Assembly: GCA_000296795.1 (NCBI GenBank)
Contig: BAFH01000003.1
Location: 1,747,290 to 1,779,289 of the forward strand
Direction of reading: 5' to 3'
DNA: 32,000 nucleotides
Origin: Candidatus Jettenia caeni
GTDB taxonomy: Bacteria > Planctomycetota > Brocadiia > Brocadiales > Brocadiaceae
Part shown: in pieces, positions 11,000 through 27,631 of the stretch
Numbering within the stretch: the first letter of the stretch is position 1
How the letters are laid out: every line of letters starts with the position of its first letter
Made by a program: the position numbers and the translations under genes
The notes under the pieces: model-generated
Told to the model about the DNA's origin: nothing
Seen by the model: only the letters and a program-made list of their open reading frames with translations
The model's database searches: none

Positions 11000-11070
11000 T
11001 TTGTTATTAAGCGTATGATACTGGTAGATTATCAAAGTTCCGGTAAGAAAAATACCTTTATTGTCCTGTT

Positions 11071-12439: not shown

Positions 12440-12584
12440 ACAGCCCCATGCAGTTGAACCGATACAAACCGTATTATCATGAATTCTATTGACAGTGTAC
12501 CGGGCGGATCAGAACGTTCGGTATCGTCGTATTTTGTAACACAAGTTTAAAGTCTGGAGTACCTTCGAAAGAGGATAATAGTAC

Positions 12585-12863
12585 ATGAGAACCAATAAAT
12601 TCTTTGTATGTCCAAACTGTGGTAATATCAAAAAATTTAAAGTATTTACGAGTAATTTTCAAATAGTTACACAATCCCCGGAATTAGGAATACGCATGAA
12701 TGAAAGCGGTGTTTTGCCTAATTTGCGGCAGGCGGATAATTATATTGAGTGTCAACTGTGTTTTAAAAAATCAGAATACGACGCAGCAGTAAACCTTGGT
12801 GAGAAATATATCAAAGACATATCAAATCAGTCCAGGGAATTAAGGCGGTATACTGAGATGTAA
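12585..12863 (+). CDS. Small zinc-ribbon protein (two CxxC pairs), function unknown
   Basis: 92 aa with CPNC (residues 9-12) and CQLC (56-59). Good RBS agagga 8 nt upstream of the ATG. It sits between the HD-GYP and GGDEF genes. Confidence 0.6.
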   Translation: MRTNKFFVCPNCGNIKKFKVFTSNFQIVTQSPELGIRMNESGVLPNLRQADNYIECQLCFKKSEYDAAVNLGEKYIKDISNQSRELRRYTEM

Positions 12864-13203: not shown

Positions 13204-14244
13204 GTGTTTGGTGTCTGTTTGAAGAAATATACAAGATTAATGAAAGATGCAATGAAACTGCTTGAGAACTATAAAAAAATAAGAGTTGTGAATAAAGTGT
13301 TAAATATAGCGCCAAATCATATGAAGATGAAAGTAAATCATTATGCCCTTGTTGAAACATTTGTAGATGCTATTATATCGGCAAATCAGGAAGGGTGTAT
13401 TGTTTATTGTAACCCTGCAGCAAAAAAGATGTTTGGATATCAGGAAGAGATCATTGGTTGCGATATTACTATCCTTATGCCTGAACGATATCGGCTAAAA
13501 TATCAAATAGGTATGACGAAGTACATAAATACAGGGCTAACAAGGATTATGGGACAAACCATAGAGTTAGTTGGTTTAAAGAAGGATGGTATTGAATTTC
13601 CCATAGAGTTATCTGTATCGGCATGCATGGTTGATAATCGATATTTTTTTACCGGTATTATCCGGGATATTACTGAAAGAAAGTGTACGGAGTTTAAACT
13701 CCTCGAGTCTAATAGGAAATTACAAGAACTTTCTATTAAGGATAGTTTAACGAATTTATATAATCGGCGTCATACTTTTCATGTAATGGAAATTGAATTC
13801 AACAGGGCAAAAAGATATCAAAAATCTCTCTCATGTTTAATGATCGATATAGATTATTTTAAAAATATCAATGATCTCTATGGTCATCCCTTTGGAGATA
13901 AAGTACTCGTACATTTTTCCTCCTTTTTACTCAATATGATACGCTCTACCGATATAGTTTCCCGATATGGAGGTGAGGAGTTTCTTGTTATTCTTCCCGA
14001 TGTAGATATAAAGGGTGCTATGGACTTTGCTGAAAGATTACGGGAGGCCGTGTCTAAACATACTATAGAGGATAAAGAAAGGAATATAAATGCAGCATTG
14101 AGCATCAGTGTTGGAGTCAGCTCTTTTACAGATAGTACACTTAATAAAGAAGAAATAATAAGCCAGGCAGATAAAGCCCTTTACGAGGCCAAGCGATCGG
14201 GAAGAAATAGAGTTTGCTGTATTCAAACTTGTAAGACTGTTTAA
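13204..14244 (+). CDS. PAS-domain diguanylate cyclase (GGDEF)
   Basis: 346 aa. PAS (GCIVYCNPAAKKMFGYQEEIIG...IIRDITERK). GGDEF domain with active-site RYGGEEF and an upstream I-site RSTD (RxxD, 5 residues before GGEEF). GTG at 13204; the in-frame ATG at 13240 is an alternative start. Confidence 0.9.
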   Translation: MFGVCLKKYTRLMKDAMKLLENYKKIRVVNKVLNIAPNHMKMKVNHYALVETFVDAIISANQEGCIVYCNPAAKKMFGYQEEIIGCDITILMPERYRLKYQIGMTKYINTGLTRIMGQTIELVGLKKDGIEFPIELSVSACMVDNRYFFTGIIRDITERKCTEFKLLESNRKLQELSIKDSLTNLYNRRHTFHVMEIEFNRAKRYQKSLSCLMIDIDYFKNINDLYGHPFGDKVLVHFSSFLLNMIRSTDIVSRYGGEEFLVILPDVDIKGAMDFAERLREAVSKHTIEDKERNINAALSISVGVSSFTDSTLNKEEIISQADKALYEAKRSGRNRVCCIQTCKTV

Positions 14245-14335
14245 AAAGAATAACGGTATCCGTATCTTCAAAACACTAAGGGGAGCACAAAACGTGGAGG
14301 CGCAAGATTGTGCGTCTCTCCAGAGGAATGAACTC

Positions 14336-14412
14336 CATATGCATCAAGCTAACATGAGGAAACGGTGAAGAATAACAAACCATCCATAATCCCCCTTTAG
14401 AAAAAGGGGAAA
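14336..14412. repeat. Direct repeat copy A (catatgcatcaagctaacatgaggaaacggtgaagaataacaaac...) ending in a cccccttt-aga-aaagggg mini-hairpin
   Basis: About 60 nt nearly identical (2-3 mismatches) to copy B at 14739. Confidence 0.8.
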
Positions 14413-14491
14413 TCTCTCGTTCCCCCCTTTTCTAGCTTATCATTTACCCACATCTTTCTCTTTCGTACACCCTATATTCCATAAGAAGTAA

Positions 14492-14672
14492 GCGATAAGT
14501 GGGCAGATATTCTCGTTCCAAAGGAAGAACAGGGTGGCACTGACAAACTCTGTTTGTCAGTGTGGTGTATTCCCTATCTACGGATGTATTCAAACAACAC
14601 GGACAAAAGATCCCCGTGTTCAAGACATACGGGGACATGGTTTGTCCGTGCCATCCTGTTTCGTCTTATCGC
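14492..14672. other. Nested multi-hairpin island (possible structured RNA or clustered REPs)
   Basis: Closing stem gcgataag (14492-99) / cttatcgc (14665-72). Inside it are an 11-bp perfect stem cactgacaaac-tct-gtttgtcagtg (14538-14562) and a two-tier stem: cacggacaaa (14598-607) / tttgtccgtg (14641-50) enclosing ccccgt (14612-17) / acgggg (14629-34). No match to an RNA family that I recognise. Confidence 0.3.
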
Positions 14673-14738
14673 ACTACTCAAACTTACCTCTTTTTTGACT
14701 TGTGGGTAAAGATAAGTTTTTAAAGGGGAGGTTAGGGG

Positions 14739-14826
14739 CATATGCATCAAGCTAACATGTGGAAACGGTGAAGAATAACAAATCACCCATAATCCCCCTT
14801 GGTCCCCCTTTAGAAAAGGGGGAAAT
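14739..14826. repeat. Direct repeat copy B, followed by further ccccttt-aga-aaagggg type hairpins through about 14960
   Basis: catatgcatcaagctaacatgtggaaacggtgaagaataacaaatcaccc..., 403 nt downstream of copy A. The motif ggggaggttagg also recurs at about 10906, 14722 and 14935. Confidence 0.8.
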
Positions 14827-15058
14827 GCATAATCTCCCTTAGTCTCCCTTTAGAAAATGGGGAAAAGTTTGATATGTTTGATCAGACAAACTTTTCTCAA
14901 GAGGAAATCTTTCCTCCTTTCCCCTCTTTTTTAAAGGGGGGTTAGGGGGGATTAGAGGGGTGCATGAACACATATTACTCTTTTTCCAGGGAAATACTTT
15001 TTTTTCAGGGATAGCAAACCTAAAAGTTTTTCCTATACAATTGAATTTCCTAAACATT

Positions 15059-15091
15059 TGTCATTCCCGAATGTCTGTATCGGGAATCCAG
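15059..15091. repeat. Second copy of the 33-nt tgtcattcccgaatg..atcgggaatccag palindromic element
   Basis: See 7835-7867. Confidence 0.85.
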
Positions 15092-15252
15092 ACTCCATTC
15101 CCGTTTTTCTTCCGCTTTTCTTCCTCATGCCGGGATTTCCAAGATCAGATTATCGTTCGAATATCAGGTTCCATAATAATAATGCAAGCCTGAAGAGCTG
15201 CATGATTATAGAGAATGCACTACGGGAGGATTTTAAGCAGTTGAAATTGTCA

Positions 15253-15281
15253 TTGACATTAATTTTGTAAACTTGTAAAAT
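15253..15281 (+). promoter_or_regulatory. Sigma-70-type promoter TTGACA-N17-TAAAAT for the acpS/radical SAM operon
   Basis: ttgaca at 15253-15258, a 17-nt spacer, and taaaat at 15276-15281. About 70 nt upstream of the ATG at 15353. Confidence 0.6.
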
Positions 15282-15352
15282 GCCGTTTTCTCAGTAACAG
15301 ATACTTGTATGATAAGTAGTTACAATAATTCCCATTATTGCATGGAATACGT

Positions 15353-15730
15353 ATGTACATTGGCATTGATATAATAGAAATAAAACGTATTGAAAGGTTA
15401 TTTTCTTCTAATGAGGGTTTTTTGAGGAAAATTTATACGGAAAAAGAAGTAGAATACTGTAATCAAAAAAAGAATAAATATCAGCATTTTGCAGCACGCT
15501 TTGCTACCAAAGAGGCTGTATTCAAGGCATTAGGGACAGGCTGGATAGGCGCTATGAAATGGACAGACATTGAGTTGTTGAACGACGAAATGGGAAAACC
15601 GTATTTGAACCTTTATGGAAGTGTAAAAGAACTGGCAAACAAAAAGAATATTAACAATATTTCTGTATCAGTATCCCATTGCCGGGATTATGCTATTGCT
15701 CAGGTATTATTAGTGCCGGGGAGTATGTGA
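15353..15730 (+). CDS. acpS: Holo-[acyl-carrier-protein] synthase (4'-phosphopantetheinyl transferase, AcpS type)
   Basis: MYIGIDIIEIKRIE... N-terminus, FAARFATKEAVFKALG motif and a C-terminal SVSHCRDYAIAQV, all typical of AcpS at about 125 aa. The ATG at 15353 is preferred over the listed TTG at 15338. Confidence 0.85.
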   Translation: MYIGIDIIEIKRIERLFSSNEGFLRKIYTEKEVEYCNQKKNKYQHFAARFATKEAVFKALGTGWIGAMKWTDIELLNDEMGKPYLNLYGSVKELANKKNINNISVSVSHCRDYAIAQVLLVPGSM

Positions 15731-15820
15731 AAATCTCAAACAGGGAGAAGTATAAAGGGTATCGGTGTGATTTTTATAGATAAGTTTTGACAATACCTAC
15801 TAACACCAGAGGGAACTTTC

Positions 15821-17299
15821 ATGAAAAAACTCGTACTGATTAATCCTCATCCGGTTGGAAATGTTGGGGAAGAAAATGTTTCTGTGCTAAATCAGATGCC
15901 GGTGAATCTCGGTTATCTTAAGAGGTTGACGCCGCAGCATTGGCAGGTTGATATTATTGATGAGACCCAGGAGCTTGCTATTGATAGCGCAGGGAATATT
16001 ACTTTCAGTGGGGCAGATCTGGTGGGTATTACATCGGTAAGTTATCAGGCTCATCGCGCCTACCAAATAGCTACTGCCTGCAAAAAAAAAGGCATACCTG
16101 TCATTATGGGTGGAATTCATGCTACGAGCTATCCGGAAGAGGTTGCAAAATATGTAGATTGTGTTGTTACCAGAGAGGCTATAACAACCTGGGAAAAGAT
16201 ACTGGCTGATTTTGAAAATGGTGTTCTTCAAAAGAGATACGATGGTGATCTGACACCCATGGAGCTTTATCGTGATCTGAGGTCCGATAGGGAATATTTG
16301 AAGAATAAATACAAATATAGATATTCAGGCATCATAACGACGGCCGGATGTCCGTTTAGTTGCGAGTTTTGTTCTGTCCCTCAGTTTCAGGGTAAAAAAT
16401 ATCGGGAAAGGCCTATTGAAGATGTCCTGGATGAATTAGAATCCATTAAGGGTCAATATCGTGGCCTGATATTAACGGATGAAAACTTTTATGGCCATAG
16501 TAAAAAATCCAACGAGCGTGTTCGTGCACTTTTCAAGGGTATGGTGGAAAGAGGTATTTATCAAAATTGGTTTGGTTTTACCTCTCTTAATATTTACTCG
16601 GATGATGAAACCCTTGAATATATGGTCAAGAGCGGATGCGTTGGGGTGCTTATCGGAATTGAATCTATCAACGAAGAAGCCCTGAAAACCATGAATAAAA
16701 ATGTGAATTTGCGTATCTCAATAGAGAAGTACTTCGAGGCAATTGCTAACATCCGTAAACATGGTCTTGCTGTATGGGGGACTATGGTTTTCGGAAACGA
16801 TGCCGATACGCCTGAGACATTTAAGCAAGTTGCTGATTTTGTTTTAGATTCTCATGTAGATGTTATGACGTGCGGTATTTTATGCCCATTTATTAACACA
16901 CCGCTTTATCATAGGTTAAAAAGTGATAATAGACTTTTTCGGACAAATTTTCCTGAGGATTGGAAGTACTATACATCTCATCACCTTACCTATATCCTCA
17001 AGAATATGTCTCTCCAGGAGCTTATTGATGGCTTTCAGTATCTCTATGATAAAATTTATGCTACGGAGGTGTTACGACAAAGATTCCAGAATGCTAAGGA
17101 CGTGTTGAGCAAGAATATGAATGCCGCTATGTTTGCATTCAGGGTCAATTTAGATTGGCAGAACGTGTATCAACACTTGATCCAAAATTTAAAAGAATTG
17201 CAGGCATCGGGATTTTACGATGAGGTCCTGAAGCTCTATAATGAATCGGAAAGACAAGGGAAAAAGACATCATTGACGCCAATTGAGGTCCCATCATAA
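15821..17299 (+). CDS. B12-binding-domain radical SAM enzyme (class B-like)
   Basis: 492 aa. The N-terminal cobalamin-binding-type Rossmann region (LVLINPHP...ADLVGITSVSYQAHRAYQIATACKKKGIPVIMGGIHAT) is followed by the radical SAM cluster motif CPFSCEFC (CxxxCxxC). Confidence 0.85.
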   Translation: MKKLVLINPHPVGNVGEENVSVLNQMPVNLGYLKRLTPQHWQVDIIDETQELAIDSAGNITFSGADLVGITSVSYQAHRAYQIATACKKKGIPVIMGGIHATSYPEEVAKYVDCVVTREAITTWEKILADFENGVLQKRYDGDLTPMELYRDLRSDREYLKNKYKYRYSGIITTAGCPFSCEFCSVPQFQGKKYRERPIEDVLDELESIKGQYRGLILTDENFYGHSKKSNERVRALFKGMVERGIYQNWFGFTSLNIYSDDETLEYMVKSGCVGVLIGIESINEEALKTMNKNVNLRISIEKYFEAIANIRKHGLAVWGTMVFGNDADTPETFKQVADFVLDSHVDVMTCGILCPFINTPLYHRLKSDNRLFRTNFPEDWKYYTSHHLTYILKNMSLQELIDGFQYLYDKIYATEVLRQRFQNAKDVLSKNMNAAMFAFRVNLDWQNVYQHLIQNLKELQASGFYDEVLKLYNESERQGKKTSLTPIEVPS

Positions 17300-17358
17300 A
17301 ACCTGTCAATGATGGAAGCTTATTCTCATGGTCTTTTTACGTTATATTAACAATTAAC

Positions 17359-17409
17359 AGGTCAACGTATCCACGGGAGATGGGTGAATACGTTGACCTC
17401 TGTTGTTTT
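17359..17409 (+). terminator. Intrinsic terminator-like hairpin after the radical SAM gene
   Basis: Perfect 12-bp stem aggtcaacgtat (17359-70) / atacgttgacct (17388-99), a 17-nt loop, then ctgttgtttt. Confidence 0.55.
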
Positions 17410-17484
17410 ACCAGTTAGAATAGATACATCAGCAGCGTTCATAATTATAGAAAATAGCGCACGGACAAGAATGGAGCATAGGTT

Positions 17485-18138
17485 ATGCCATCTACAAAGG
17501 ATAGGGTTGATAATCTCGAGAGGGTACTTGAAGAATATATTAAAAATATCGGCAATGCTCAGATGCAGACCGAAAGAGAAATTCGGGAATTCAAGGGAGA
17601 GGTGAAAGAGTTTAAAGATGAGATGAAGGAGTTTAAAGATGAAATGAAGGAATTCAAAGACGAGATGAAGGAATTTAAGGATGAAATGAGGGAAGATAGG
17701 AGAAATATGAACAAAAAGTGGGGTGAAATTGCCAATAAAATGGGGACGGTGGTAGAAGATATCGTAGCGCCCAATATCCCACGGATTGCACAAGAATACT
17801 TTCAATGCGAAGATGCGGAATTTTTTGGGTTAAGGGTAACGAAAAGAAATTCAAAGGATAAATCAAGAAGCAGGGAGTTTGATATAATCGCTGTATACGA
17901 TGATAAGATACTTATAAACGAAACTAAATCTTCACCAAGTATTGATTACATCAACGAATTTACCGAGGTACTGAAAGAGGTTTACGATTACTTTCCCGAG
18001 TATAAAGGAAAAAGAATAATTCCTATATTTTCTTCCCTTTATATTCCGGAAAATGTGGTAACGTATCTTACCAAAGTGAAAATTTACGCCATGGCTATGA
18101 AGGATGATGGTATGGAGTTATTGAATCCCCATATTTGA
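17485..18138 (+). CDS. Coiled-coil protein with heptad tandem repeat and a C-terminal PD-(D/E)xK nuclease-fold-like domain
   Basis: 217 aa. The N-terminus contains (K/R)EFKDEM x5. The C-terminal domain has REFDIIAV...ILINETK, fitting a D...ExK restriction-endonuclease-like motif. RBS-like aggtt precedes the ATG. Confidence 0.6.
   Translation: MPSTKDRVDNLERVLEEYIKNIGNAQMQTEREIREFKGEVKEFKDEMKEFKDEMKEFKDEMKEFKDEMREDRRNMNKKWGEIANKMGTVVEDIVAPNIPRIAQEYFQCEDAEFFGLRVTKRNSKDKSRSREFDIIAVYDDKILINETKSSPSIDYINEFTEVLKEVYDYFPEYKGKRIIPIFSSLYIPENVVTYLTKVKIYAMAMKDDGMELLNPHI
17584..17694 (+). repeat. 21-bp tandem repeat (about 5 copies) encoding the heptad K-E-F-K-D-E-M
   Basis: Units start at 17584, 17605, 17626, 17647 and 17668. 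The copies differ mainly at synonymous positions (gag/gaa, ttt/ttc, aaa/aag, gat/gac). Confidence 0.9.
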
Positions 18139-18199
18139 TATAACGGGCAATCTCCTTTTGATAGATACGCATCAATTTTAAAAATATTCAAATGAGGTA

Positions 18200-19438
18200 T
18201 TGTTTCTGATTACTGAAAAAAATAAGTCAAAAGTGGTAATTACCGGATTAGGACTGGTTACCCCTGTTGGGATAGGTGTTCAAAAAAGTTGGGAATCCTT
18301 TATCCATGGCTGCGATGGAGCTAATGAGATGAAGTCGTTCGATACCTCCCAGTACAAGGTTCACCGTTCTTGTGAGGTAAAGGATTTTCATCTGGATGTT
18401 GAATTAGAGAATCAAATAAAGGAAAACACCATCCATAAATATGTTTATTATGCAGCCCGGGAGGCATTACAGGAAAGCGGTTTGTCGCATGATAAGAGCA
18501 GCTTCAATAAGGAACGTTTTGGTATTGCTATGGGAACCTTAGCTGCTGAATTAACACCTCATGAAAGACTTTTACGATTACATACCTCAAAAAAAGATAA
18601 CGGTTTTGATAAGATTGTTGCTGCTGTTTATCCTCCGAATTCTATTACGAATATCCTCGCTCAATATTTTCACTTTGAGGGGCCTACCATGGTCTCGCTG
18701 AATGCCTGTTCTTCAGGTAATCATGCCATTGCCTGGGCTTACGACCTTCTTATAGAGAATAAGGTAGATGTTGTAATGGTTGGCGGAGGGGATATGATCC
18801 CTCAAACGGAATTTACTCATTTCCATAATCTCAAAGCGCTTGCTCCTGAGCATTGTCAGCCCTTTGATAAAAACAGGCAAGGACTTATGATCGGAGAAGG
18901 AGCCGGTATCTTGATCATGGAACGTTATGAATTTGCCAGGAAAAGGGGGGCGGTTATTATTGCTGAAATGGCGGGTTATGGATTAAGCTGTGATGGATTC
19001 CATATGACAGCGCCTCATCCGGAGGGTGAAGGTGCTGTAAAATGTATGGGTGATGCGCTAAAAATGGCAAGGCTTTCTCCGTCTGATATCGGCTATATCA
19101 ATGCACATGGTACGGGTACGCCACATAATGATAAGGCGGAGACTATTGCTATAAAGCACTTGTTCAGGGATCATGCTTATAACATTCCCTGCAGTTCCAC
19201 AAAATCCATGATAGGTCATCTTATGGGTGCAGCGAGTGCTGTAGAATCTGTTATATGCTGCCTTGCATTACGATACGGAATATTGCCTCCAACAATTCAT
19301 TACCATACACCTGATCCGGAGTGTGACCTTGATTATATACCTAACAGGGCGCGGGAGTTAACCGTTAAGCATGTTTTAAATAACTCATTTGCCTTTGGTG
19401 GTAATAATGCTACCACGATATTCAGTAAAATAGAATAG
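18200..19438 (+). CDS. Beta-ketoacyl-ACP synthase (FabF/KS-alpha-like, catalytically intact)
   Basis: 412 aa. Active-site Cys in SLNACSSGNHAI, His in INAHGTGTPHND, and His in KSMIGHLMGAAS. TTG start at 18200; the exact start is uncertain (GTG at 18233 would give VVITGLG). Confidence 0.9.
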   Translation: MFLITEKNKSKVVITGLGLVTPVGIGVQKSWESFIHGCDGANEMKSFDTSQYKVHRSCEVKDFHLDVELENQIKENTIHKYVYYAAREALQESGLSHDKSSFNKERFGIAMGTLAAELTPHERLLRLHTSKKDNGFDKIVAAVYPPNSITNILAQYFHFEGPTMVSLNACSSGNHAIAWAYDLLIENKVDVVMVGGGDMIPQTEFTHFHNLKALAPEHCQPFDKNRQGLMIGEGAGILIMERYEFARKRGAVIIAEMAGYGLSCDGFHMTAPHPEGEGAVKCMGDALKMARLSPSDIGYINAHGTGTPHNDKAETIAIKHLFRDHAYNIPCSSTKSMIGHLMGAASAVESVICCLALRYGILPPTIHYHTPDPECDLDYIPNRARELTVKHVLNNSFAFGGNNATTIFSKIE

Positions 19439-19451
19439 TCTTCACATACTT

Positions 19452-20681
19452 ATGAAACGAAGGGTCGTAGTTACAGGAATAGGGATTGTATCACCTCTTG
19501 GATTTACCAAAGATGATTTTTGGAATAACCTCGTAGAGGGAAAATTGGGCATTGCGCCAATGACATCTCTTGATCTCTCACCATATACATGCAAGCTTGG
19601 CGGAGAGGTTAGAGACCTTCGTCCCGAAATCTATCTTGGCAATAAAGGTTTGAAGTACTTGCATAAAGGCACAAGGTTCTTAGGATCGGCCACGAAGATG
19701 GCGCTTGATGATGCAAAGTTACCGCAGGATAGTTCTTTATCGGATCAAATGGGTGTGGTTGTTGGATCGTCTTTAGGCAATTTTTCTGAAACAACAGATT
19801 ATTTCTATGAGATTATCAGAAATAATCCTTCAGAATTATCGCCGATGGTCAGCTATGATGTTGCATTAAATTCTTCAATTAACTACGTTTCTGTTACCTT
19901 TAAGATAAAGGGACTTGCACGGACTATATCAGCAGGTTTCACATCAAGCGCGGATGCGATAGGGAATGCATATGGTATAATTCAGCGAGATATGGCCAAA
20001 GTTATTATTGCGGGCGGGGTCGAGCAGATTTCTATCGATCTGTATCTCATATTTTATCTGCGAGGTCTCTTATCAGGTCTCGATGGCACAAAGGAGGCTG
20101 GTTTACCCTTCGATAATAAAAGGAATGGTTTTGTAATGTCTGAAGGCAGTTATGTGGTTATTCTCGAAGAGCTTCAGCATGCTCTGGACAGGGGAGCGCC
20201 TATCTACGCAGAAGTAAGAGGCTTTGGAAATACCTTTGTAGGTGGTAAAAATTATTCGAAAGAGGAAAGGGCGCGCCGTGTTGAAAGGGCTATGTACAGC
20301 GCCTTGGAGGAAGCAGATATTCAGAAAGAAACTATTGATCTTATCAGCGCAAATGCAAATGGATGCAAGATGCAGGATGCTATTGAAGCACAGGCAATCC
20401 AATCCTTTTATGGCTCAAAGGGCAATGATATTCCTGTCTCGGCAATAAAATCGAATATGGGTGAATCTTATGGCGCCGCAGGTGCTGCTCAGTTTATTTC
20501 TACTGTCATGTCTATACATACCGGCACAATACCTCACATCATCAATCACAACGAAAAAGACCCGAAAGTTAATCTAAATCTTATCCTGCAGAATCCCGTC
20601 AGGAAAGAAATTCAAAATGCACTGGTAAACACCATGGATTACGATGGAAATAATTCATGTTTGGTGATAAGTAAATTATGA
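19452..20681 (+). CDS. Ketosynthase paralog lacking the Cys-His-His triad (chain-length-factor / KS-beta-like)
   Basis: 409 aa with a KS fold (RRVVVTGIGIVSPLG...). Aligned by eye to the upstream KS, the catalytic positions read ISAGFTSSADAIG (Cys to Phe), ISANANGCKMQD (His to Asn) and KSNMGESYGAAG (His to Glu). The gene starts 13 nt after the KS stop. Confidence 0.85.
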   Translation: MKRRVVVTGIGIVSPLGFTKDDFWNNLVEGKLGIAPMTSLDLSPYTCKLGGEVRDLRPEIYLGNKGLKYLHKGTRFLGSATKMALDDAKLPQDSSLSDQMGVVVGSSLGNFSETTDYFYEIIRNNPSELSPMVSYDVALNSSINYVSVTFKIKGLARTISAGFTSSADAIGNAYGIIQRDMAKVIIAGGVEQISIDLYLIFYLRGLLSGLDGTKEAGLPFDNKRNGFVMSEGSYVVILEELQHALDRGAPIYAEVRGFGNTFVGGKNYSKEERARRVERAMYSALEEADIQKETIDLISANANGCKMQDAIEAQAIQSFYGSKGNDIPVSAIKSNMGESYGAAGAAQFISTVMSIHTGTIPHIINHNEKDPKVNLNLILQNPVRKEIQNALVNTMDYDGNNSCLVISKL

Positions 20682-22699
20682 GCAAACTGTTTGAAGAAAT
20701 ACCTGTCGGTCAGATGACAGTAAAAAACAGGATAATCATGTCTGCTATGGATTTGGGATTTACTTCTGACGGTACAGTGAATGACCGGATTGTTCGTTTT
20801 TATGAGGATCGTGCCAAAGGCGGTGTTGGCCTCATTGTTGTAGGTGGTTGTTATCCGGAAATGAATGGTAAGGTTTGGAAGAGTATTATTGGATTAGACA
20901 AGGATGAGCTTATTCCGGGATTACGAAGATTAACCGATACTGTTCATGCCTATCAGGTGCGTATCGCCGCTCAGTTGCTTCACGGTGGCCGCAGCGCCTC
21001 ATCCTTCTTTACAAAAATGCAGCCTGTTTCTCCCTCTCCCCTGGTGCACAGAAGTATCAAACAGGAACCGCATGCCCTGACAGTCTCAGAGATTAAAACA
21101 GTTATCGGTAATTATGTCAGCGCAACCGTAAGGGCAAAGAAGGCCGGCTTTGATGCCGTGGAGCTTCACGGTGGTATGGGATACCTCATTAATCAATTCC
21201 TTTCAAAGGCTACCAATAAGCGTGATGATGGGTATGGTGGAAGTCTTGAAAACAGGGTTCGTTTTGCCAGGGAAATAATAATCGCCATAAAAGAAGCCGT
21301 TGGGAAGGACTACCCTATCATCTTTCGGATGTCAGGAGATGATCTTGTTGCGGAGGGACTCAAAATAGATGAGAGTCTGGAAATTGCCCGGATGTTAGAG
21401 CAATCAGGCGCTGATGCCTTTAACGTATCTCCTGGCTGGCATGAGAGCAGAACGCCTATCCTATCAATGATTATTCCACGGATGGCTTATACCTTTCTTT
21501 CACAAAGAATCAAATCATGCGTAAAAGTTCCGGTAATTGCCTCAGTCAGAATAAACGATCTTACCCTGGCCGAAGAGGTCTTAGACAATGAGCAGGCAGA
21601 CATGGTATCCCTTGGCAGACCACTCATCGTAGACCCTGATCTGCCGAATAAATATAAAAACGGGCAATTTGATGATATCAGAACATGCATTGCCTGTAAT
21701 CAGGGTTGCTTTGATTCTTTGCTGAATTTTAAATCCGTTTCCTGTACGTATAATGCAATGGCAGGGCATGAAGGTGAGTATAAAATAATTCCATCAAGCA
21801 AACCGAAAAAGGTGGTGGTCATAGGCGGGGGACCTGCCGGTATGGAAGCTGCCCGTGTTTTGGCATTACGGGGACACAGGGTTACCTTGTATGAGAGGAA
21901 AAAACATCTGGGCGGTCAATTACGGTATGCCTTTATTCCTCCGGGACGTGAAGAAATACAAAATATTATTACCTACCTGGAAAAACAGATTTTCAGGCTT
22001 AAGGTACATATAAAAACCGGAAAAGAGGCTGATTTACAAATGTTACAGGAGGAACAACCCGATGCCATAGTTGTAGCCACAGGTGGATATCCTGTCATGC
22101 CTGATCTTCCCGGTATAAAAGGGAAACAGGTGTATACAGCAAGTACTATACTGGAGGGAAAAGTTTTATCGGGAAAGGACGTGGTCATACTTGGCGGTGG
22201 AACTGTAGGATGTGAGGTGGCGCTGCACATAGCCAAACAGGGAACAATGAGGCCTGATGTGGCTTGTTTTCTGCTAAAACACAAGGTGCTCAGCGACAGG
22301 GATGTCATTGAATACACTACCAGGGGAAGTAAGGATATCACCATTCTGGAAATGAAAAAGAAAATAGGTGGCGGATTTGGTATTTCCACACGATGGGTTA
22401 TTCTCAATGAGTTAAAAGACGCTGGGGTAAAAGAAATAACAGAAGTGCGGGTGAAGGAAATAATAAATAATGGCGAAAATGGCAGAAAAACGGAAGGCGT
22501 CGTTTATGAAAAGGGCGGAAAAGATTATTTTATCAGGGCCGATACCGTTATTATTGCTGTCGGGTACAGTCCTTATAACGCTATGCAAAAGCAGATAGAA
22601 GGAAAGTTTCCGGAGATATATTGTATTGGTGATTGCGTTAAGGTTCGCACTGCATTAGAAGCTATTCACGAAGGTTTTGAAGTTGCCTTAAAGATATAA
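20678..22699 (+). CDS. 2,4-dienoyl-CoA reductase-like flavoprotein (OYE FMN barrel + 4Fe-4S + FAD/NAD(P) domain; FadH family)
   Basis: 673 aa. OYE motifs are present (NRIIMSAM, RAKGGVGLIVVGG, ELHGGMGYLINQFLS..NKRDDGYGGSLENRVRF). Cys cluster CIACNQGCFD...C. Dinucleotide fold VVVIGGGPAGMEAA. The start overlaps the upstream stop codon (ATGA). Confidence 0.9.
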   Translation: MSKLFEEIPVGQMTVKNRIIMSAMDLGFTSDGTVNDRIVRFYEDRAKGGVGLIVVGGCYPEMNGKVWKSIIGLDKDELIPGLRRLTDTVHAYQVRIAAQLLHGGRSASSFFTKMQPVSPSPLVHRSIKQEPHALTVSEIKTVIGNYVSATVRAKKAGFDAVELHGGMGYLINQFLSKATNKRDDGYGGSLENRVRFAREIIIAIKEAVGKDYPIIFRMSGDDLVAEGLKIDESLEIARMLEQSGADAFNVSPGWHESRTPILSMIIPRMAYTFLSQRIKSCVKVPVIASVRINDLTLAEEVLDNEQADMVSLGRPLIVDPDLPNKYKNGQFDDIRTCIACNQGCFDSLLNFKSVSCTYNAMAGHEGEYKIIPSSKPKKVVVIGGGPAGMEAARVLALRGHRVTLYERKKHLGGQLRYAFIPPGREEIQNIITYLEKQIFRLKVHIKTGKEADLQMLQEEQPDAIVVATGGYPVMPDLPGIKGKQVYTASTILEGKVLSGKDVVILGGGTVGCEVALHIAKQGTMRPDVACFLLKHKVLSDRDVIEYTTRGSKDITILEMKKKIGGGFGISTRWVILNELKDAGVKEITEVRVKEIINNGENGRKTEGVVYEKGGKDYFIRADTVIIAVGYSPYNAMQKQIEGKFPEIYCIGDCVKVRTALEAIHEGFEVALKI

Positions 22700-22756
22700 C
22701 ACGTTTTTACCCCGGATAGACACAGACAAGCATAGATAACAATAAAGGTTTTGACA

Positions 22757-23563
22757 ATGAAAGATATCCGCATGAATCGTGGTGATAACTCCGGTTATGA
22801 TCACATTGAATCCGAAGAAATCAGGGCTCATAATGGTAAGGCCATCGGTATTATTTATCTGAAAAAACCTCCACGAAACTCTATAGGCTCATGGCTTCTG
22901 GATGCCCTCTATGATAAGATGGATCAGTATGAGGGTGATGAAAGAGTGGGCGCTATTATTATTGCCAGTAAACTAAGGGGCGTCTTTAGTGACGGCGCTG
23001 ACCGTGATGAGCTCTTTGGCACCTGGATATCGGGTCTTGTAGCTGATAAGAACTATGAACGGTTTCATCGCGCTCATGAGATGTTTGTGGAGATTGAAAA
23101 TTGTAAAAAGCCTGTTATTGCTGCCATAAACGGAGTTACGATCGGCGCTGGTTTAGAGCTTGCTATGCTGTGTGACCTGCGTATTGCGTCTGAACTTTCC
23201 TTTTTCAGCCTGCCAGAGGCAAAACCTGAACTGAGTATTATTCCCGGTCTTGGAGGTACACAGCGTTTGCCCCGTTATATCGGTATGGCGCGTGCTAAGG
23301 AGATGCTGTTTTTAGGAAAGATGATCCGTGCTGAGACCGCTTTGGAATGGGGTCTCGTTAATCAAATTTCACCTCATAAAGAGGTTATAAACCATGCCAT
23401 AGTTTTGGCAGAAACGTTGTTAGAACGAGATGCAAGGGCGCTCAAAGAGATGAAGAAATGTATCAATTTTGCGGGAGAGAACGATATCCTGAAAGGTATC
23501 GAATATGAGGTGGGTCTCTTTGCAGAGATGATGCGATTAAAATTTTCGAATAAGGGTAAATAA
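22757..23563 (+). CDS. Enoyl-CoA hydratase/isomerase (crotonase superfamily)
   Basis: The oxyanion/catalytic segments NGVTIGAGLELAMLCDLRIA and LPEAKPELSIIPGLGGTQRLPR retain both Glu positions. The ATG at 22757 (RBS aaagg 8 nt upstream) is preferred over the TTG at 22751. Confidence 0.85.
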   Translation: MKDIRMNRGDNSGYDHIESEEIRAHNGKAIGIIYLKKPPRNSIGSWLLDALYDKMDQYEGDERVGAIIIASKLRGVFSDGADRDELFGTWISGLVADKNYERFHRAHEMFVEIENCKKPVIAAINGVTIGAGLELAMLCDLRIASELSFFSLPEAKPELSIIPGLGGTQRLPRYIGMARAKEMLFLGKMIRAETALEWGLVNQISPHKEVINHAIVLAETLLERDARALKEMKKCINFAGENDILKGIEYEVGLFAEMMRLKFSNKGK

Positions 23564-23634
23564 GGCATATTTTTGAAAGCGCTTCCCATGTTTTTTACCT
23601 TATAGAGAAACGAACTAATCAAAAGGAGGTAATT

Positions 23635-24378
23635 ATGGAGTTCAAGGATACCGTAGCAATTGTTACGGGTGGTACCCGGGGTATAGGCAAGTCAATCGCA
23701 TTAGAACTGGCAAAAAACGGCTGCAACATAGCCTTTAACTACAATAAAAATACCGATGCTGCCCATCTTCTGGTAAAGGAAATTGAATCGATGGGTGCAA
23801 AGGCCATTTCTTTCCAGGTAAATGCAGCCAGTTTTGAAGGCGCTAAGAATATGGTAAAAGAAGTGAAGGATAGATTTGGAAAGATTGATTTCCTGGTAAA
23901 TAATGCCGGTATTACCCGTGATAAACTCCTCGCTTTAATGGCAGAGAATGATTGGGATGATGTTATCAATACCAATCTCAAAAGTGTTTATAATTTTTCT
24001 AAATCGGTGATTACCCAGATGATCAAGCAAAAATCAGGTAGCATCCTGAATATAACCTCAGTAAGTGGAATAACGGGAATAGCAGGTCAGGTAAACTATT
24101 CTTCCTCCAAGGCTGGTATGATAGGATTTACCAAGGCCCTTGCCAAAGAGGTGGGGAAGGCAAATATTACGGTAAATGCGATAGCCTGCGGCTTTATTGA
24201 AACAGACATGACGGCAGTTTTGCCTCAGGAATATAAGGATAAAATGATTGAGATGATTCCGGTAAGAAGATTTGGCACACCTGATGATGTTGCCAAAGCG
24301 GCGATTTTCCTGTTATCAGACCATGCTAAATACATTACTGGTCATGTAATTAGCGTCGATGGCGGTTTAGCAATGTAG
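23635..24378 (+). CDS. fabG: 3-oxoacyl-ACP reductase (short-chain dehydrogenase/reductase)
   Basis: 247 aa. TGGTRGIG cofactor motif, NNAG, catalytic S...YSSSK, C-terminal ITGHVISVDGGLAM. RBS aaggagg upstream. Confidence 0.9.
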   Translation: MEFKDTVAIVTGGTRGIGKSIALELAKNGCNIAFNYNKNTDAAHLLVKEIESMGAKAISFQVNAASFEGAKNMVKEVKDRFGKIDFLVNNAGITRDKLLALMAENDWDDVINTNLKSVYNFSKSVITQMIKQKSGSILNITSVSGITGIAGQVNYSSSKAGMIGFTKALAKEVGKANITVNAIACGFIETDMTAVLPQEYKDKMIEMIPVRRFGTPDDVAKAAIFLLSDHAKYITGHVISVDGGLAM

Positions 24379-24456
24379 AAAGAGAATGGGAGTCCTGATT
24401 CCTGCAGGAAACGTTACCGCACCGTTGCAACTATTGTAAATTGAAAGGTAAAGACT

Positions 24457-24768
24457 ATGCTATTTTTATTAAAAGTTGAAATAAAGCAGATGCCCCCTTT
24501 GCCGGTAAAAGACTTTTTGGAATATGTTATAAAAGAATGGGAATATTTTTCACGATTTCAAAGGCGTGGTAAGATTATAGCGGGTGGGAAATTAGCTGGT
24601 AAGAGGGGGGCTGCGGCTATAATCGATGCTGAATCCAATGAAGAGATGGAAGATATCGTCTCAAAATTACCGCTCTTTCCGTTCTTTACCGATATAGAAA
24701 TCACGCCTCTTGTGCCTATGGAGAAGGCGCTTCTGGATACCAAGAGGATTCATTCGCTGATGAAGTAG
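24457..24768 (+). CDS. Muconolactone delta-isomerase-family small protein
   Basis: 103 aa. MLFLLKVEIK... at the N-terminus and AAIIDAESNEEMEDIVSKLPLFPFFTDIEITPL closely parallel the CatC-type pattern as I recall it (MLF.V.m......a..iFDv.S.eel..il..LPLFPymdieV.PL). Confidence 0.65.
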   Translation: MLFLLKVEIKQMPPLPVKDFLEYVIKEWEYFSRFQRRGKIIAGGKLAGKRGAAAIIDAESNEEMEDIVSKLPLFPFFTDIEITPLVPMEKALLDTKRIHSLMK

Positions 24769-24773
24769 CGGCG

Positions 24774-26066
24774 TTAATGTTGAGGGTGGTCCGTATGATG
24801 GAAAATTCCAAATAACTTTTTGATGGTTTCTACGTATCGATATCCACCTCCGTTTTTCGCCTCTTGTTTTGCTACCTTTGCCGGGTGGTGAAGGAGTTTG
24901 TTAATGGTACGTTCAATAGCATAAACAACTTGTTCCCATTCTCCATCTTGCATGTTTTTCAGTTTTGGTTTTAAACGATTTAACTCTTCCCTGCCGATTG
25001 CATGGAAATGATTCCGCAACAGGGTTATTGCAGGTTCTATCTTTATTTCCTCCAGCTTTGCCATAAAATGTTCTACTTCCTCTTCAATAATACTACGGCA
25101 TTTTTCTATCTCTCTGGTTCGCTCATCGATGTTTTGGCTTACGACAGATTGTAAATCATCAATGTTGTAGAGATATACATTGTCAATTTTGGCAACATCA
25201 GGTTCAATGTCCCTTGGAACAGCGATATCTATGAGGAATATAGGATTTCCCCTCCGGTGTTTGATGGCCTCTTTTATCTGCTGGGCATGAATCACATAGT
25301 GAGGAGCGGAGGTGGAGCTGATAATAATATCAGCCTTTGCGAGATATTCTCCCAGTAATTCATATTTAATGGCCTGGCCATGATATGTGTGAGCAAGTTC
25401 CTGTGCACGTTCAAATGTGCGGTTTGCAACCACGAATGTACGCGCTCCTTCTTCATACAGATGCTTTATGAGGAGTTCGCACATTTCACCGGCGCCTACC
25501 ACGAGAACCATTTTTCCGGTAAAATCCTGAAATATTTTCTCGGCAAATTCTACTGCTACAGAACTTATAGAGACCTTTCTCTTTCCAATGGAAGTTTTCG
25601 TATGCACGATTTTAGCGACATTGAGCGCCTGCTGAAATAGCTGATTAAGAACCTTTCCCGTGGATTCCTGCAAAGACGCTATGGTGTAGGCTTCTTTAAC
25701 CTGCGACAGGATTTGTGATTCTCCTAATACCATAGAATCAAGGCTGGTAGTGACAAAGAAAAGATGATTAACCGCCCGGTCATCCTTGTTATGGTACATA
25801 TAAGGGGAAAAAACAGGTAACTCAACCTTGTGGAAATCAGCAAGGAATGAAAGGACATCCTCTGCCTGAATAGCGCCATCCAGAGAGGATACATATATTT
25901 CAACACGGTTACAGGTCGATAAGATAACAGCTTCTGCCTTTTGATATTTTTGGAGAAAATAAGATAAAGCAGTGGGAATATTATTAGCATTAAAAGCAAG
26001 TTTTTCTCTAACCTCTACAGGGGCTGATTTATGGTTCAACCCTACAACTAAAATACTCATGTCCAA
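24774..26066 (-). CDS. hemA: Glutamyl-tRNA reductase
   Basis: 430 aa. ILVVGLNHKSAPVEVREKLAF, catalytic-Cys motif STCNRVEIY, NADPH-binding VLVVGAGEM, and the dimerisation tail. Confidence 0.95.
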   Translation of the reverse strand: MDMSILVVGLNHKSAPVEVREKLAFNANNIPTALSYFLQKYQKAEAVILSTCNRVEIYVSSLDGAIQAEDVLSFLADFHKVELPVFSPYMYHNKDDRAVNHLFFVTTSLDSMVLGESQILSQVKEAYTIASLQESTGKVLNQLFQQALNVAKIVHTKTSIGKRKVSISSVAVEFAEKIFQDFTGKMVLVVGAGEMCELLIKHLYEEGARTFVVANRTFERAQELAHTYHGQAIKYELLGEYLAKADIIISSTSAPHYVIHAQQIKEAIKHRRGNPIFLIDIAVPRDIEPDVAKIDNVYLYNIDDLQSVVSQNIDERTREIEKCRSIIEEEVEHFMAKLEEIKIEPAITLLRNHFHAIGREELNRLKPKLKNMQDGEWEQVVYAIERTINKLLHHPAKVAKQEAKNGGGYRYVETIKKLFGIFHHTDHPQH

Positions 26067-26115: not shown

Positions 26116-26985
26116 TTATTGAATATGTAAAATCTTTGTATGAGATTGTTCGTTGACATTCTGAAAGGCATGTTTGGATCCCATAAAGAAGGTACCGATA
26201 AAGGTAAAAAGCACAAGGCAAAAACCTGCAATAGTCAAACATGCGATCTTTGTGCCATGAAAAGATGCGACAAGGCGCATATGCAACAGCGCTGCGTATA
26301 TGAGCCAGGTTGCCAAACCAAGAATAACCTTGTAATCCAAATACCACATCTCGCCTAAAATATTTTGTGTTTTTACCCAAAAAGTACCGAATACAAGTCC
26401 TAAGGTAAGGAGAGGAAAGCCAAAAGAAATTGTTTTCCACATAAGCTTGTCAATTCCTTCCAATGAGGGCAATCTATTAAAAAGAGGGCCAAATAGCTTA
26501 TGTTTTAATTGTCTTTGCTGCGTTAAATACATGATACTCAGGCTAAAGGATATGGTAAAGGCGGCGTATCCTACAAATATGGGGATAATATGCGCTATAA
26601 GCCAAAAGTTCTGAAGATGTACGGTAATGAGCAGATTTCCCCCATCAAATGTAAGCGCCCATAGTGAAAGCGCTGTAACAACAGGCATTAAAAAAGTATC
26701 TAAAGAGGGTAATTTGTAAAGATAATCCAGATTGATGTAAACAAAGAGAATGCACCAGAGTAATGATATGAAGGATTCGTATACATTGGTTATCGGGATA
26801 TTGCTCGATTCAAAACCCAGGAATACCAGAAAACCGCTGTGAATAAAGAATCCCATCATCATAGACCACTTAACTACTTTCCTATTGAAAGCATGTGGTT
26901 TTACGATGGATCCTATAGACCATACCGAAGATATGAAATAGAGGACTATAACAATTATAAAAGGAATATGTGGTAACGATATCAT
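26116..26985 (-). CDS. CcsA/HemX-family cytochrome c assembly-like integral membrane protein
   Basis: 289 aa, polytopic and hydrophobic. The region GTFWVKTQNILGEMWYLDYKVILGLATW aligns to the CcsA W-rich (WWD) segment but is degenerate. The gene lies 49 nt upstream of hemA, as in hemA-hemX type arrangements. Confidence 0.7.
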   Translation of the reverse strand: MISLPHIPFIIVIVLYFISSVWSIGSIVKPHAFNRKVVKWSMMMGFFIHSGFLVFLGFESSNIPITNVYESFISLLWCILFVYINLDYLYKLPSLDTFLMPVVTALSLWALTFDGGNLLITVHLQNFWLIAHIIPIFVGYAAFTISFSLSIMYLTQQRQLKHKLFGPLFNRLPSLEGIDKLMWKTISFGFPLLTLGLVFGTFWVKTQNILGEMWYLDYKVILGLATWLIYAALLHMRLVASFHGTKIACLTIAGFCLVLFTFIGTFFMGSKHAFQNVNEQSHTKILHIQ

Positions 26986-27155: not shown

Positions 27156-27380
27156 ATGGATGAAAATATAAAGAAGATAACGAAAAAGACCAGTATTGGG
27201 GATGTGATTAAGCAATATCCTGAGACGGAACCTGTTATAAAAAAATATTTCGGTTCCGGTTGTTTTACATGTCCAGGCTCAAAGATGGAAGATATTTCAT
27301 TTGGCGCCACGATGCATAATATTGATCCTGAAGTAATTATTAAAGAATTGAATGAAGTTATTAATAAGAAAAAGAGTTAA
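27156..27380 (+). CDS. DUF1858 / hybrid-cluster-protein-associated redox-disulfide-type small protein
   Basis: 74 aa. IGDVIKQYPETEPVIKKYFGSGCFTCPGSKMEDISFGATMHNIDPE has the CxxC and overall pattern of this family. Confidence 0.6.
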   Translation: MDENIKKITKKTSIGDVIKQYPETEPVIKKYFGSGCFTCPGSKMEDISFGATMHNIDPEVIIKELNEVINKKKS

Positions 27381-27412
27381 CTATTTCATAACATAATCAA
27401 GGAGATTGATCA

Positions 27413-27631
27413 ATGAGAGAAAAAGTAGAAGAAGCGCTTAATCATATTAGACCTGCGCTCCAGGCGGATGGCGGTGATATTGAATTAGTGGATATAGAGG
27501 GAGGTGTTGTGAAGGTGCGTCTGAGAGGGGCTTGTGGAACTTGCCCAAGTGCGCTCATGACGCTAAAGTATGGTGTGGAAGAACGTCTTAAAGAAGAGAT
27601 CCCTGAAGTAGAATCTGTGGAACTTGCATAG
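27413..27631 (+). CDS. NifU C-terminal (Nfu-like) Fe-S scaffold/carrier domain protein
   Basis: 72 aa. IRPALQADGGDIELVDIEGGVVKVRLRGACGTCPSALMTLKYGVEERL with the CxxC motif. RBS aaggag upstream. Confidence 0.85.
   Translation: MREKVEEALNHIRPALQADGGDIELVDIEGGVVKVRLRGACGTCPSALMTLKYGVEERLKEEIPEVESVELA

Follow-up and report, generated by a model that had tools for sequence, protein, structure and literature searches.

Nine co-oriented genes in a 32,000-nucleotide stretch of the anammox bacterium Candidatus Jettenia caeni (assembly GCA_000296795.1, contig BAFH01000003.1, forward-strand positions 1,747,290 to 1,779,289; hereafter the window, numbered from its first letter) were analysed as a candidate cluster for an unusual lipid. 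The reading that we favour, and consider probable, is that the locus is the Jettenia copy of an ancestral anammox operon and that it encodes one half of a specialised lipid pathway dependent on an acyl carrier protein (ACP), the other half being a second gene set known as Cluster I, with ladderanes as the probable product. Taken separately, a role in a specialised ACP-dependent lipid pathway is very likely; that this pathway is the ladderane pathway we consider an even chance. Ladderanes are highly strained and, to our knowledge, so far unique to anammox bacteria; their synthesis has been an open question for more than 20 years, and we know of no enzyme that has been tied to them.

The original prediction had named the positions and the families of the nine genes, and both were borne out by open reading frame (ORF) calls and by Pfam and NCBIfam profile hidden Markov models: nine ORFs, all on the plus strand, occupy positions 15338-24768 (Table 1). 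The intergenic distances range from -4 to 185 bp, and a promoter/terminator scan revealed no convincing plus-strand terminator between the nine genes. It had also been claimed that ACP, FabD, FabH, FabZ/FabA and FabI are missing from the window. None of these families turned up when the other large ORFs were scanned with Pfam, and a phmmer search of the six-frame translation of the window with three ACPs, amxFabZ and a desaturase-like protein gave chance-level matches only (best E = 0.07). The window proteins are 96-100% identical to proteins of Candidatus Jettenia ecosi, Jettenia caeni and Jettenia sp., and the neighbouring genes are syntenic with those of J. ecosi.

The core of the row consists of AcpS, a cobalamin (B12)-binding radical S-adenosylmethionine enzyme (rSAM), a beta-ketoacyl synthase (KS) and a catalytically dead KS (KSmut), and it is almost certainly the Candidatus Jettenia orthologue of kuste2802-2805 of Kuenenia stuttgartiensis. 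The two loci share the order AcpS, B12 rSAM, FabF-like KS, non-canonical KS, the same substitutions in the non-canonical KS, and an anammox host. Residues Phe163, Asn298, Asn300, Cys302, Lys328, Glu333 and Gln342 of KSmut reproduce the Kuste2805 active-site pattern tabulated by Rattray et al. 2009 (Table 2 in PMC2649909); at position 392 manual alignment placed Tyr here and Phe in Kuste2805. In contrast to the Kuenenia cluster, which has been described as four genes and whose FadH-crotonase pair lies elsewhere (locus L084), the Jettenia locus carries a gene for a 217-amino-acid (217-aa) protein between rSAM and KS, and genes for a FadH-like enzyme, a crotonase, FabG and an isomerase-like protein follow directly. 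The kuste2802-2805 cluster has been proposed as a ladderane candidate since 2009 (PMC2649909, PMC4790861, PMC9204698). Kuste2802 is the only acpS of K. stuttgartiensis, and the B12 radical SAM protein Kuste2803 was singled out by Rattray et al. 2009 as a possible cyclisation catalyst (PMC2649909); a 2022 review likewise named Kuste2803 as a potential cyclobutane-forming enzyme. The suggested link to the fatty acid synthase (FAS)-like, rSAM-containing ladderane candidates of anammox bacteria was thus sound, the core being the kuste2802-2805 orthologue in an anammox host. It also follows that the core cluster is a rediscovery of the 2009 candidate and not novel, and that its ladderane role is a proposal.

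Cluster I, which is distinct from kuste2802-2805 and is now regarded as the central ladderane cluster, comprises kuste3603-3608, encoding amxACP, amxFabZ, amxFabF2, amxFabFmut, a phytoene-desaturase-like protein and a B12 rSAM (PMC10139942; preprint 10.64898/2026.05.19.726425). Both clusters pair an active KS with a KS that lacks the catalytic triad. The KS of the window is 44-45% identical to the amxFabF2-type KS of loci L086 and L087, KSmut shares 36% identity with the amxFabFmut-type protein of L087, and rSAM is 50-53% identical to the Cluster I-type rSAM, the two rSAM types forming sister clades in a tree. By these comparisons rSAM, KS and KSmut are a triad of paralogues of the Cluster I proteins. 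The clusters differ in that the window cluster has no ACP, FabZ or desaturase-like gene and instead possesses AcpS, FabG, crotonase, FadH-like and isomerase-like genes, and in that the Cys position is occupied by Phe in the window KSmut and by Val, Thr or Glu in amxFabFmut. They differ also in how they are known: biochemical and structural studies concern proteins of Cluster I, and those of the window cluster are known from sequence.

The assignment of one KS as active and of the other as a triad-less, chain-length-factor (CLF)-like homologue, made in the original prediction, was confirmed by alignment. The active-site columns of KS read C/H/K/H, with an intact Cys-His-His triad, and those of KSmut F/N/K/E, with Phe, Asn and Glu at the Cys, His and His positions; the two genes are separated by 13 bp. 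Neither protein reached the housekeeping FabF equivalog TIGR03150 (KS 409.5 and KSmut 319.1 against a cutoff of 493.75); KS passed the looser subfamily model NF005589 (400 against 387). The best match of KS in the Protein Data Bank was chain B of 9s5h (409 bits; chain C, 178 bits) and that of KSmut was chain C of the same entry (305 bits; chain B, 205 bits), so that each is closest to the corresponding, different subunit of one solved heterodimer (9s5h/9s5i). We take 9s5h/9s5i to be the amxFabF2/amxFabFmut heterodimer because chain C has Val at the Cys position, as described for amxFabFmut in the preprint, whose text gives no PDB codes. In a neighbour-joining tree the active subunits formed one clade and the dead subunits another, and in each clade the proteins of this cluster were sister to the Cluster I type. 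By homology to the crystallised amxFabF2/amxFabFmut, KS and KSmut of this operon would form a KS/CLF-like heterodimer; heterodimer formation and malonyl-ACP decarboxylation have been demonstrated for the Cluster I paralogues only (preprint 10.64898/2026.05.19.726425).

The pair had been likened to the KS/CLF heterodimers of type II polyketide synthases (PKS), such as those of actinorhodin (ActI, 1tqy) and ishigamide (Iga11/Iga12, 6kxd). These share with the window an adjacent active KS and inactive homologue, presumed to form a heterodimer, and both 1tqy chains and 6kxd were retrieved as more remote homologues of KS and KSmut; the similarity was, however, far below that to FabF and to the anammox pair. 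In PKS chain length factors Gln is typical at the active-site Cys position. KSmut has Phe there instead of this Gln, the window contains no PKS ACP, cyclase or aromatase, and its tailoring set is fully reducing and FAS-like, unlike that of type II PKS. The comparison therefore stands as far as an amxFabF2/amxFabFmut-like pair is concerned and fails for type II PKS proper, and pairs of this kind turned out to be common outside anammox bacteria (see below).

The rSAM protein consists of B12-binding (PF02310) and Radical_SAM (PF04055) domains and a DUF4070 tail, with the cluster motif CPFSCEFC at residue 177. It reached no NCBIfam equivalog and had no close solved structure; its best sub-threshold NCBIfam matches were class B methyltransferase, cyclase and ring-contraction enzymes (PhpK, BchE, HpnJ, HpnR). 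Membership in TIGR04072 (rSAM_ladder_B12, 'lipid biosynthesis B12-binding/radical SAM protein') was considered and rejected, the window rSAM scoring 80.3 bits where the cutoff is 360; at 63-82 bits, the rSAMs of the Cluster I type and of Blastocatellia fall outside this family too. As both anammox rSAM types lie far below its cutoff, TIGR04072 describes a third rSAM type. A Sci Adv paper on membrane-spanning lipids was found to have no bearing on the window rSAM.

The extent of the operon was determined by comparing loci across the anammox lineages. KSmut is 96% identical in Candidatus Jettenia ecosi and 70-80% identical in about 30 Brocadiaceae genomes, after which identity drops to about 30% in ordinary FabFs. 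The genome scan on which this rests used one genome per species and peptide patterns that recover only orthologues of at least about 70% identity and generic FabFs; Kuenenia and Scalindua were beyond its reach, and for the Kuenenia cluster the literature and L084 served as sources. The homologue lists for KSmut and FadH likewise consisted of Brocadiaceae matches above 70% identity and were uninformative on distant relatives. Within these limits, the order AcpS-rSAM-KS-KSmut was retained in at least 30 Brocadiaceae loci and, in addition, in L085 and L087. AcpS is 80-98% identical across the Brocadiaceae loci and lies directly upstream of rSAM in all of them. All eight genes, without that of the 217-aa protein, are contiguous in the window, L001, L085 and L094. 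In L085 and L094, where KSmut identity is 56-58%, they stand in the same order and the KSmut-FadH gap is 2 bp. Two further loci with 53% KSmut identity have seven genes each: L086 extends from rSAM through the isomerase-like gene and has no acpS, and L087, whose relatives are labelled Candidatus Bathyanammoxibius or Brocadiales, extends from AcpS through the isomerase-like gene and has no crotonase. L085, L086, L087 and L094 represent four deep-branching lineages. L017 has all eight genes, with a 3.6 kb insertion. FadH adjoins KSmut directly in L085, L086, L087, L093 and L094, and in the window its start overlaps the KSmut stop by 4 bp.

Brocadia-like genomes gave a more variable picture downstream. 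The AcpS-rSAM-KS-KSmut core is always intact in them, but FadH-crotonase comes next in some, stands behind 0.7-5 kb of unrelated genes in others, and is missing from the following 4-10 kb in yet others. The simplest reading of these arrangements is that the eight-gene order is ancestral and has eroded in Brocadia and Kuenenia into AcpS-rSAM-KS-KSmut, FadH-crotonase and FabG-isomerase-like blocks, each of which stays intact. The view of the nine genes as one fixed unit had to be given up, the 217-aa gene being variable and the other eight splitting into three blocks in Brocadia and Kuenenia.

Two deep lineages connect the operon with Cluster I. In L086 the genes for amxACP, amxFabZ (the FabZ matches solved amxFabZ structures) and a KS lie divergently upstream and adjoin the operon, and a Cluster I-type rSAM gene is found downstream of it. 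In L087 a full Cluster I, in convergent orientation, lies about 1.2 kb downstream of the operon. Cluster I has no ketoreductase and no enoyl reductase, and the operon has reductases and no ACP; because the gene sets are complementary and are adjacent in two deep lineages, a single pathway for both is the probable reading. As far as checked, the Kuenenia orthologues of the FadH-like, crotonase and isomerase-like genes lie outside the listed candidate clusters.

In the proposed pathway the ACP would be provided in trans, most probably as the amxACP of Cluster I; AcpS would activate it, and the KS/KSmut heterodimer would elongate the acyl chains that it carries. FabG (TIGR01830, 321.7 against a cutoff of 297.75; motifs GGTRGIG, NAG and YSSSK) belongs clearly to its family and would, if the presumed substrate is right, reduce the 3-oxo group. 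Dehydration could be performed by the crotonase, by amxFabZ or by both, on presumed substrates carried by ACP or CoA; the GAGLELA and SLPE segments of the crotonase, judged by manual alignment to the rat enoyl-CoA hydratase, would contain the two catalytic Glu residues. The FadH-like flavoenzyme may reduce enoyl or dienoyl intermediates, their nature and carrier again being presumed. Residues 3-673 of this protein align along the full length of E. coli 2,4-dienoyl-CoA reductase (1ps9, 382 bits), its closest solved relative, and it has the old yellow enzyme (OYE) TIM barrel, the FAD/NADPH domains and the 4Fe-4S motif CIACNQGCFDSLLNFKSVSC (C-x2-C-x3-C-x11-C) of a FadH-type enzyme; it reached no NCBIfam equivalog. 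The isomerase-like protein could shift double bonds. It matches the muconolactone isomerase (MIase) family PF02426 (52.8 against 26.7 bits, residues 1-86 of the 90-position model) and misses the muconolactone isomerase equivalog TIGR03221 (42.5 against 130.6), and so is a divergent member of the family, probably with another substrate. Its orthologues (62-92% identity) were found only in Brocadiales-type sequences, and its gene follows FabG in every context examined. Finally, the unusual reaction on the chain, a C-H activation or a C-C bond step, might fall to the cobalamin rSAM.

Outside anammox bacteria an exhaustive HMMER search with rSAM against 1.84 billion cluster representatives gave, as the best relative (52% identity), a protein of a metagenome-assembled genome (MAG) of Blastocatellia. 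In this MAG (GCA_035652355.1, contig DASRDY010000236.1, proteins HZS47096-47100; L088/L089 5133-11467; JGI 3300005529) a five-gene, 6.3 kb block has the order KS, KSmut, rSAM, a lysophospholipid-acyltransferase-family (DUF374/LPLAT) gene, rSAM. Its KS, KSmut and rSAM are 51%, 41% and 58% identical to the window proteins, KSmut showing the same Cys to Phe and His to Glu changes, and its second rSAM is 57-64% identical to the Cluster I type (Kuste3608). Unlike the anammox loci, it has within 10 kb no AcpS, FadH, crotonase, FabG, MIase, amxACP, amxFabZ or desaturase-like gene. The contig has a GC content of 0.50, as against about 0.40, and Acidobacteria-like flanks; the phylum is taken from the MAG label only. 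Clusters of this type are rare, being represented by a few soil metagenome contigs. The next-closest rSAM relative (P0378, 44% identity) lies among chaperone genes with no KS nearby, an unrelated context. By these comparisons the KS/KSmut pair with its two rSAM types appears to be a module almost, although not strictly, specific to anammox bacteria.

Among more than 120 non-anammox FabF-centred loci none had an rSAM of at least 45% identity to either anammox type and none had orthologues of FadH, crotonase or MIase. Many non-anammox loci contained a KS, a triad-less KS, FabG, FabZ and a desaturase-like gene, all in the Cluster I-like branch. These are probably the 'ladderane-like' FAS clusters reported by antiSMASH in several phyla (Desulfotalea-type clusters and antiSMASH 'ladderane' calls; PMC2649909, PMC9902471). 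They resemble the window in having KS, triad-less KS and FabG (in the examples L097-L118, F, Y or I replaces the Cys of the dead subunit and E its second His), but they are related to the Cluster I KS pair and not to the window pair. Pairs of active and dead KS in FAS-like clusters are thus widespread beyond anammox bacteria and not unusual per se. A metagenome scan with the KSmut alignment, which used generic patterns, is not a census and did not recover the known Blastocatellia contig, yielded among the matches listed L093, L094, L122 and many non-anammox Cluster I-like loci. A separate arrangement was seen in Omnitrophota and 'Planctomycetia' MAGs (L031, L033 and L051, at about 10000-12500), where the gene directly after that of an ordinary-looking FabF encodes another KS homologue, whose Cys/His/Lys/His columns read Arg or Lys, Asp, Lys and Asn; a distant B12 rSAM (23-25% identity) and FabG are encoded nearby.

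The synteny and distribution survey called for in the original prediction thus had a mixed outcome: the order is kept in anammox lineages, but the eight genes are dispersed in some of them and the core module occurs in a Blastocatellia MAG. The aryl-polyene alternative offered there, considered together with other polyene-forming type II PKS clusters, was effectively refuted. A KS, a dead KS and a FabG-like ketoreductase do resemble highly reducing type II PKS and aryl-polyene systems, and there were sub-threshold matches of KS to NF005490 (184.8 against 445) and of FabG to flexirubin FlxB NF053542 (267 against 340), yet all relevant family cutoffs were missed. Moreover, ACP, a FabA/FabZ-type dehydratase pair, acyltransferase, LolA and export genes are all missing from the window, the Cys position of KSmut is Phe and not the Gln typical of PKS CLF, and the cluster is found in anammox bacteria and one Blastocatellia lineage instead of showing the broad Gram-negative spread of aryl polyenes.

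Several observations weigh against the operon as half of a ladderane pathway. Class B radical SAM enzymes are mostly methyltransferases, and FadH and crotonases normally use CoA esters, not ACP esters. In B. pituitae the crotonase gene is beside the core and FadH is about 1.45 Mb away, in Kuenenia sp. (L084) a FadH-crotonase pair is free-standing, apart from the core, and in L172 the FabG-MIase pair is free-standing; since the genes are scattered in Brocadia and Kuenenia, co-transcription is not required. KS, KSmut and the two rSAM types have orthologues in the Blastocatellia MAG, whose group is not known for ladderanes. In E. coli the kuste2802-2805 genes gave rise to insoluble protein, and no new fatty acid appeared (Javidpour et al. 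2016, PMC4790861). Neither the kuste2802-2805-type cluster nor Cluster I has been tied to ladderanes by experiment. The scheme of the original prediction, in which a polyunsaturated chain would be built first and then cyclised, is hypothetical, and no polyunsaturated intermediates have been detected in anammox bacteria, which have no genetic system (PMC10139942).

The dispersed FadH, FadH-crotonase and FabG-MIase genes also speak for a composite origin of the row, in which only AcpS-rSAM-KS-KSmut would be a unit, FadH and crotonase would be auxiliary enzymes of an acyl-CoA beta-oxidation type, FabG and the isomerase-like protein would be separate, and adjacency would be historical. In about 18 Brocadia-like loci, where the sequence continues for at least 4-10 kb beyond KSmut, no FadH follows it, unrelated genes, for example a FapA-like gene, are inserted in other Brocadia-like loci, the four genes kuste2802-2805 have been listed and treated as a complete cluster (Javidpour et al. 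2016, PMC4790861), and the closest solved relative of the FadH-like enzyme is CoA-dependent. However, an order with gaps of 2-97 bp that is shared by Jettenia and by deep lineages at 53-58% KSmut identity is hard to explain without selection, and in the window the KSmut and FadH genes even overlap. Furthermore, the set supplies exactly the ketoreductase and enoyl-reductase-like functions that Cluster I lacks, and anammox genomes keep the four downstream genes, all of them, also where these are dispersed. Taking these points together, we regard a composite origin as improbable.

The main competitor of the ladderane interpretation is that the operon makes another specialised lipid, for instance methyl-branched or otherwise modified acyl chains; the KS/CLF pair would then assemble the chain on ACP, and rSAM would be its C-methyltransferase. 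Anammox bacteria reportedly also contain mid-chain methyl-branched fatty acids, of unexplained origin, which counts in favour of such a product. So do the sub-threshold rSAM matches to class B methyltransferase, cyclase and ring-contraction enzymes, the usual methyltransferase role of class B rSAMs, and the occurrence of the orthologues, beside a lysophospholipid-acyltransferase-family gene, in Blastocatellia, a group not known for ladderanes. Nevertheless, there are two deep anammox lineages in which the operon adjoins Cluster I, the rSAM-KS-KSmut clade hardly extends beyond anammox bacteria, and a methyltransferase would have no obvious need for its own KS/CLF pair, dienoyl reductase and isomerase. 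We consider this reading unlikely.

The ladderane interpretation can be put in a stronger and more tentative form, which we think possible but would not expect to prove correct: the operon and Cluster I would be the halves of an ancestral supercluster of about 13 genes encoding the ladderane pathway, still contiguous in Bathyanammoxibius-like and Scalindua-like genomes. On this supposition the FadH-like enzyme, crotonase, FabG and the isomerase-like protein would supply the ketoreductase, dehydratase, enoyl-/dienoyl-reductase and isomerase steps, and the minimal set that defines the chemistry would be the KS/KSmut pair with the two paralogous cobalamin rSAMs. If it were true, a ladderane-related lipid may exist outside anammox bacteria, in soil Blastocatellia. 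In the Scalindua-like 5.1 Mb contig of L086, genes for a HEPN protein, a DDE transposase and a Pol-beta-type nucleotidyltransferase (10428-12675) separate the isomerase-like gene from the Cluster I-type rSAM gene, and this mobile or toxin-antitoxin insertion sits within a possible former single supercluster.

The locus represents a refinement and not a new system, although the underlying ladderane question is important. Reconstitution has so far been centred on Cluster I alone, which lacks ketoreductase and enoyl reductase, and the operon offers such functions. With it come another KS/CLF pair and another rSAM, and in deep lineages the operon is physically joined to Cluster I; the comparison thereby sharpens what to test. 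Through the Blastocatellia homologue the rSAM chemistry might be approached outside anammox bacteria; the homologue also cautions that the module is perhaps not specific to ladderanes. A literature search for ladderanes in connection with FadH, crotonase or muconolactone-isomerase genes, or with Blastocatellia, returned nothing relevant, and the ancestral eight-gene extent, the Cluster I junction, the paralogous rSAM/KS/KSmut triads and the Blastocatellia homologue were not found in the searchable literature.

The coordinates of the genes and of the best promoter-like site are collected in Table 1. This site was the top-scoring sigma-70-type match within 14200-25200 and the only one that stood out; its -35 hexamer is at 15253, where the original prediction had placed the start of the cluster. 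As the scan returned 35 sites in total against 29 expected from shuffled sequence, which is near chance, it is to be read as a consensus match only. AcpS was identified by PF01648 (E = 7e-20) and TIGR00516 (103.6 against a cutoff of 59.8), and judged against the L085 orthologue its true start is probably the ATG at 15353 (MYIGIDIIEI...).

Table 1. Promoter-like site and genes of the cluster (window positions).
Position	Strand	Feature	Basis of assignment
15253..15281	+	Promoter-like site, TTGACA-17 nt-TAAAAT, upstream of acpS	11/12 sigma-70-type consensus positions
15338..15730	+	AcpS-type phosphopantetheinyl transferase (holo-ACP synthase), Kuste2802 orthologue	PF01648, TIGR00516
15821..17299	+	Cobalamin-binding radical SAM enzyme (rSAM), Kuste2803 orthologue	PF02310, PF04055, DUF4070
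17485..18138	+	217-aa coiled-coil protein, inserted, without specific family	Pfam/library scans
18200..19438	+	Active beta-ketoacyl synthase (KS), Kuste2804 orthologue, amxFabF2 paralogue	Pfam KS N- and C-terminal domains
19452..20681	+	Catalytically dead KS (KSmut, chain-length-factor-like), Kuste2805 orthologue, amxFabFmut paralogue	Active-site columns
20678..22699	+	FadH/OYE-type Fe-S flavoenzyme (2,4-dienoyl-thioester or enoate reductase type)	Oxidored_FMN and Pyr_redox_2
22751..23563	+	Crotonase-family enoyl-thioester hydratase/dehydratase	PF00378, E = 4.5e-48
23635..24378	+	FabG-type 3-oxoacyl-ACP reductase	TIGR01830
24457..24768	+	Small muconolactone-isomerase-family protein (MIase-like; putative double-bond isomerase)	PF02426

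The 217-aa gene is a lineage-variable insertion and lies outside the conserved unit. It is intact in the window and in L020 (62% identity) and otherwise missing from the orthologous clusters, J. ecosi holding it as a deletion remnant (L001, about 8575-8691). The N-terminal part of the protein is a coiled coil, and in its helix of about 100 residues five tandem 21-nt repeats code for KEFKDEM-like heptads; its matches in Pfam, PHROGs and PADLOC were dismissed as coiled-coil artefacts. In the C-terminal domain a D...E-x-K-like motif (REFDIIAV...INETK) is reminiscent of PD-(D/E)xK nucleases, and a single-sequence AlphaFold2 (AF2) model is unreliable in this domain (pLDDT < 50). Ahead of the gene there is a promoter-like site, TTGACC-17-TAGAAT, at 17393-17421.

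The other large ORFs of the window encode signalling proteins, a molybdopterin oxidoreductase, HemA, a cytochrome c assembly protein, NifU/DUF1858 proteins, ThiF and a class V aminotransferase. Immediately beyond the cluster and convergent with it, hemA (glutamyl-tRNA reductase) and a CcsA-like cytochrome c assembly gene lie on the minus strand (26116-26985 and 24774-26066), followed by small DUF1858 and NifU-like genes (27156-27631); these haem/Fe-S cofactor genes have no evident lipid link. The upstream part (71-10038) contains two paralogous sigma-54 response regulators (5836-7539 and 8332-10038), for which the same flank of J. ecosi has one match (78% and 98% identity), and the molybdopterin oxidoreductase gene (1343-3451) stands between a fragment of a histidine kinase gene (71-583) and a complete PAS histidine kinase gene (3645-5297). 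This arrangement suggests a local duplication or insertion of the two-component module. The region ahead of acpS also varies between lineages: in L085 (91-1431) and L087 (1137-2486) a divergent MatE-family efflux gene is immediately upstream, and in Jettenia and Brocadia there is no MatE gene there but PAS/HD-GYP and GGDEF signalling genes. Downstream of KSmut in L082 (14311-16380), from the Brocadia-like genome GCA_046350575.1, eight minus-strand ORFs of 48 aa (one of 44 aa) were called; they are spaced by about 215 bp or multiples thereof, adjoin an ISL3 transposase gene and resemble a long-period tandem repeat.

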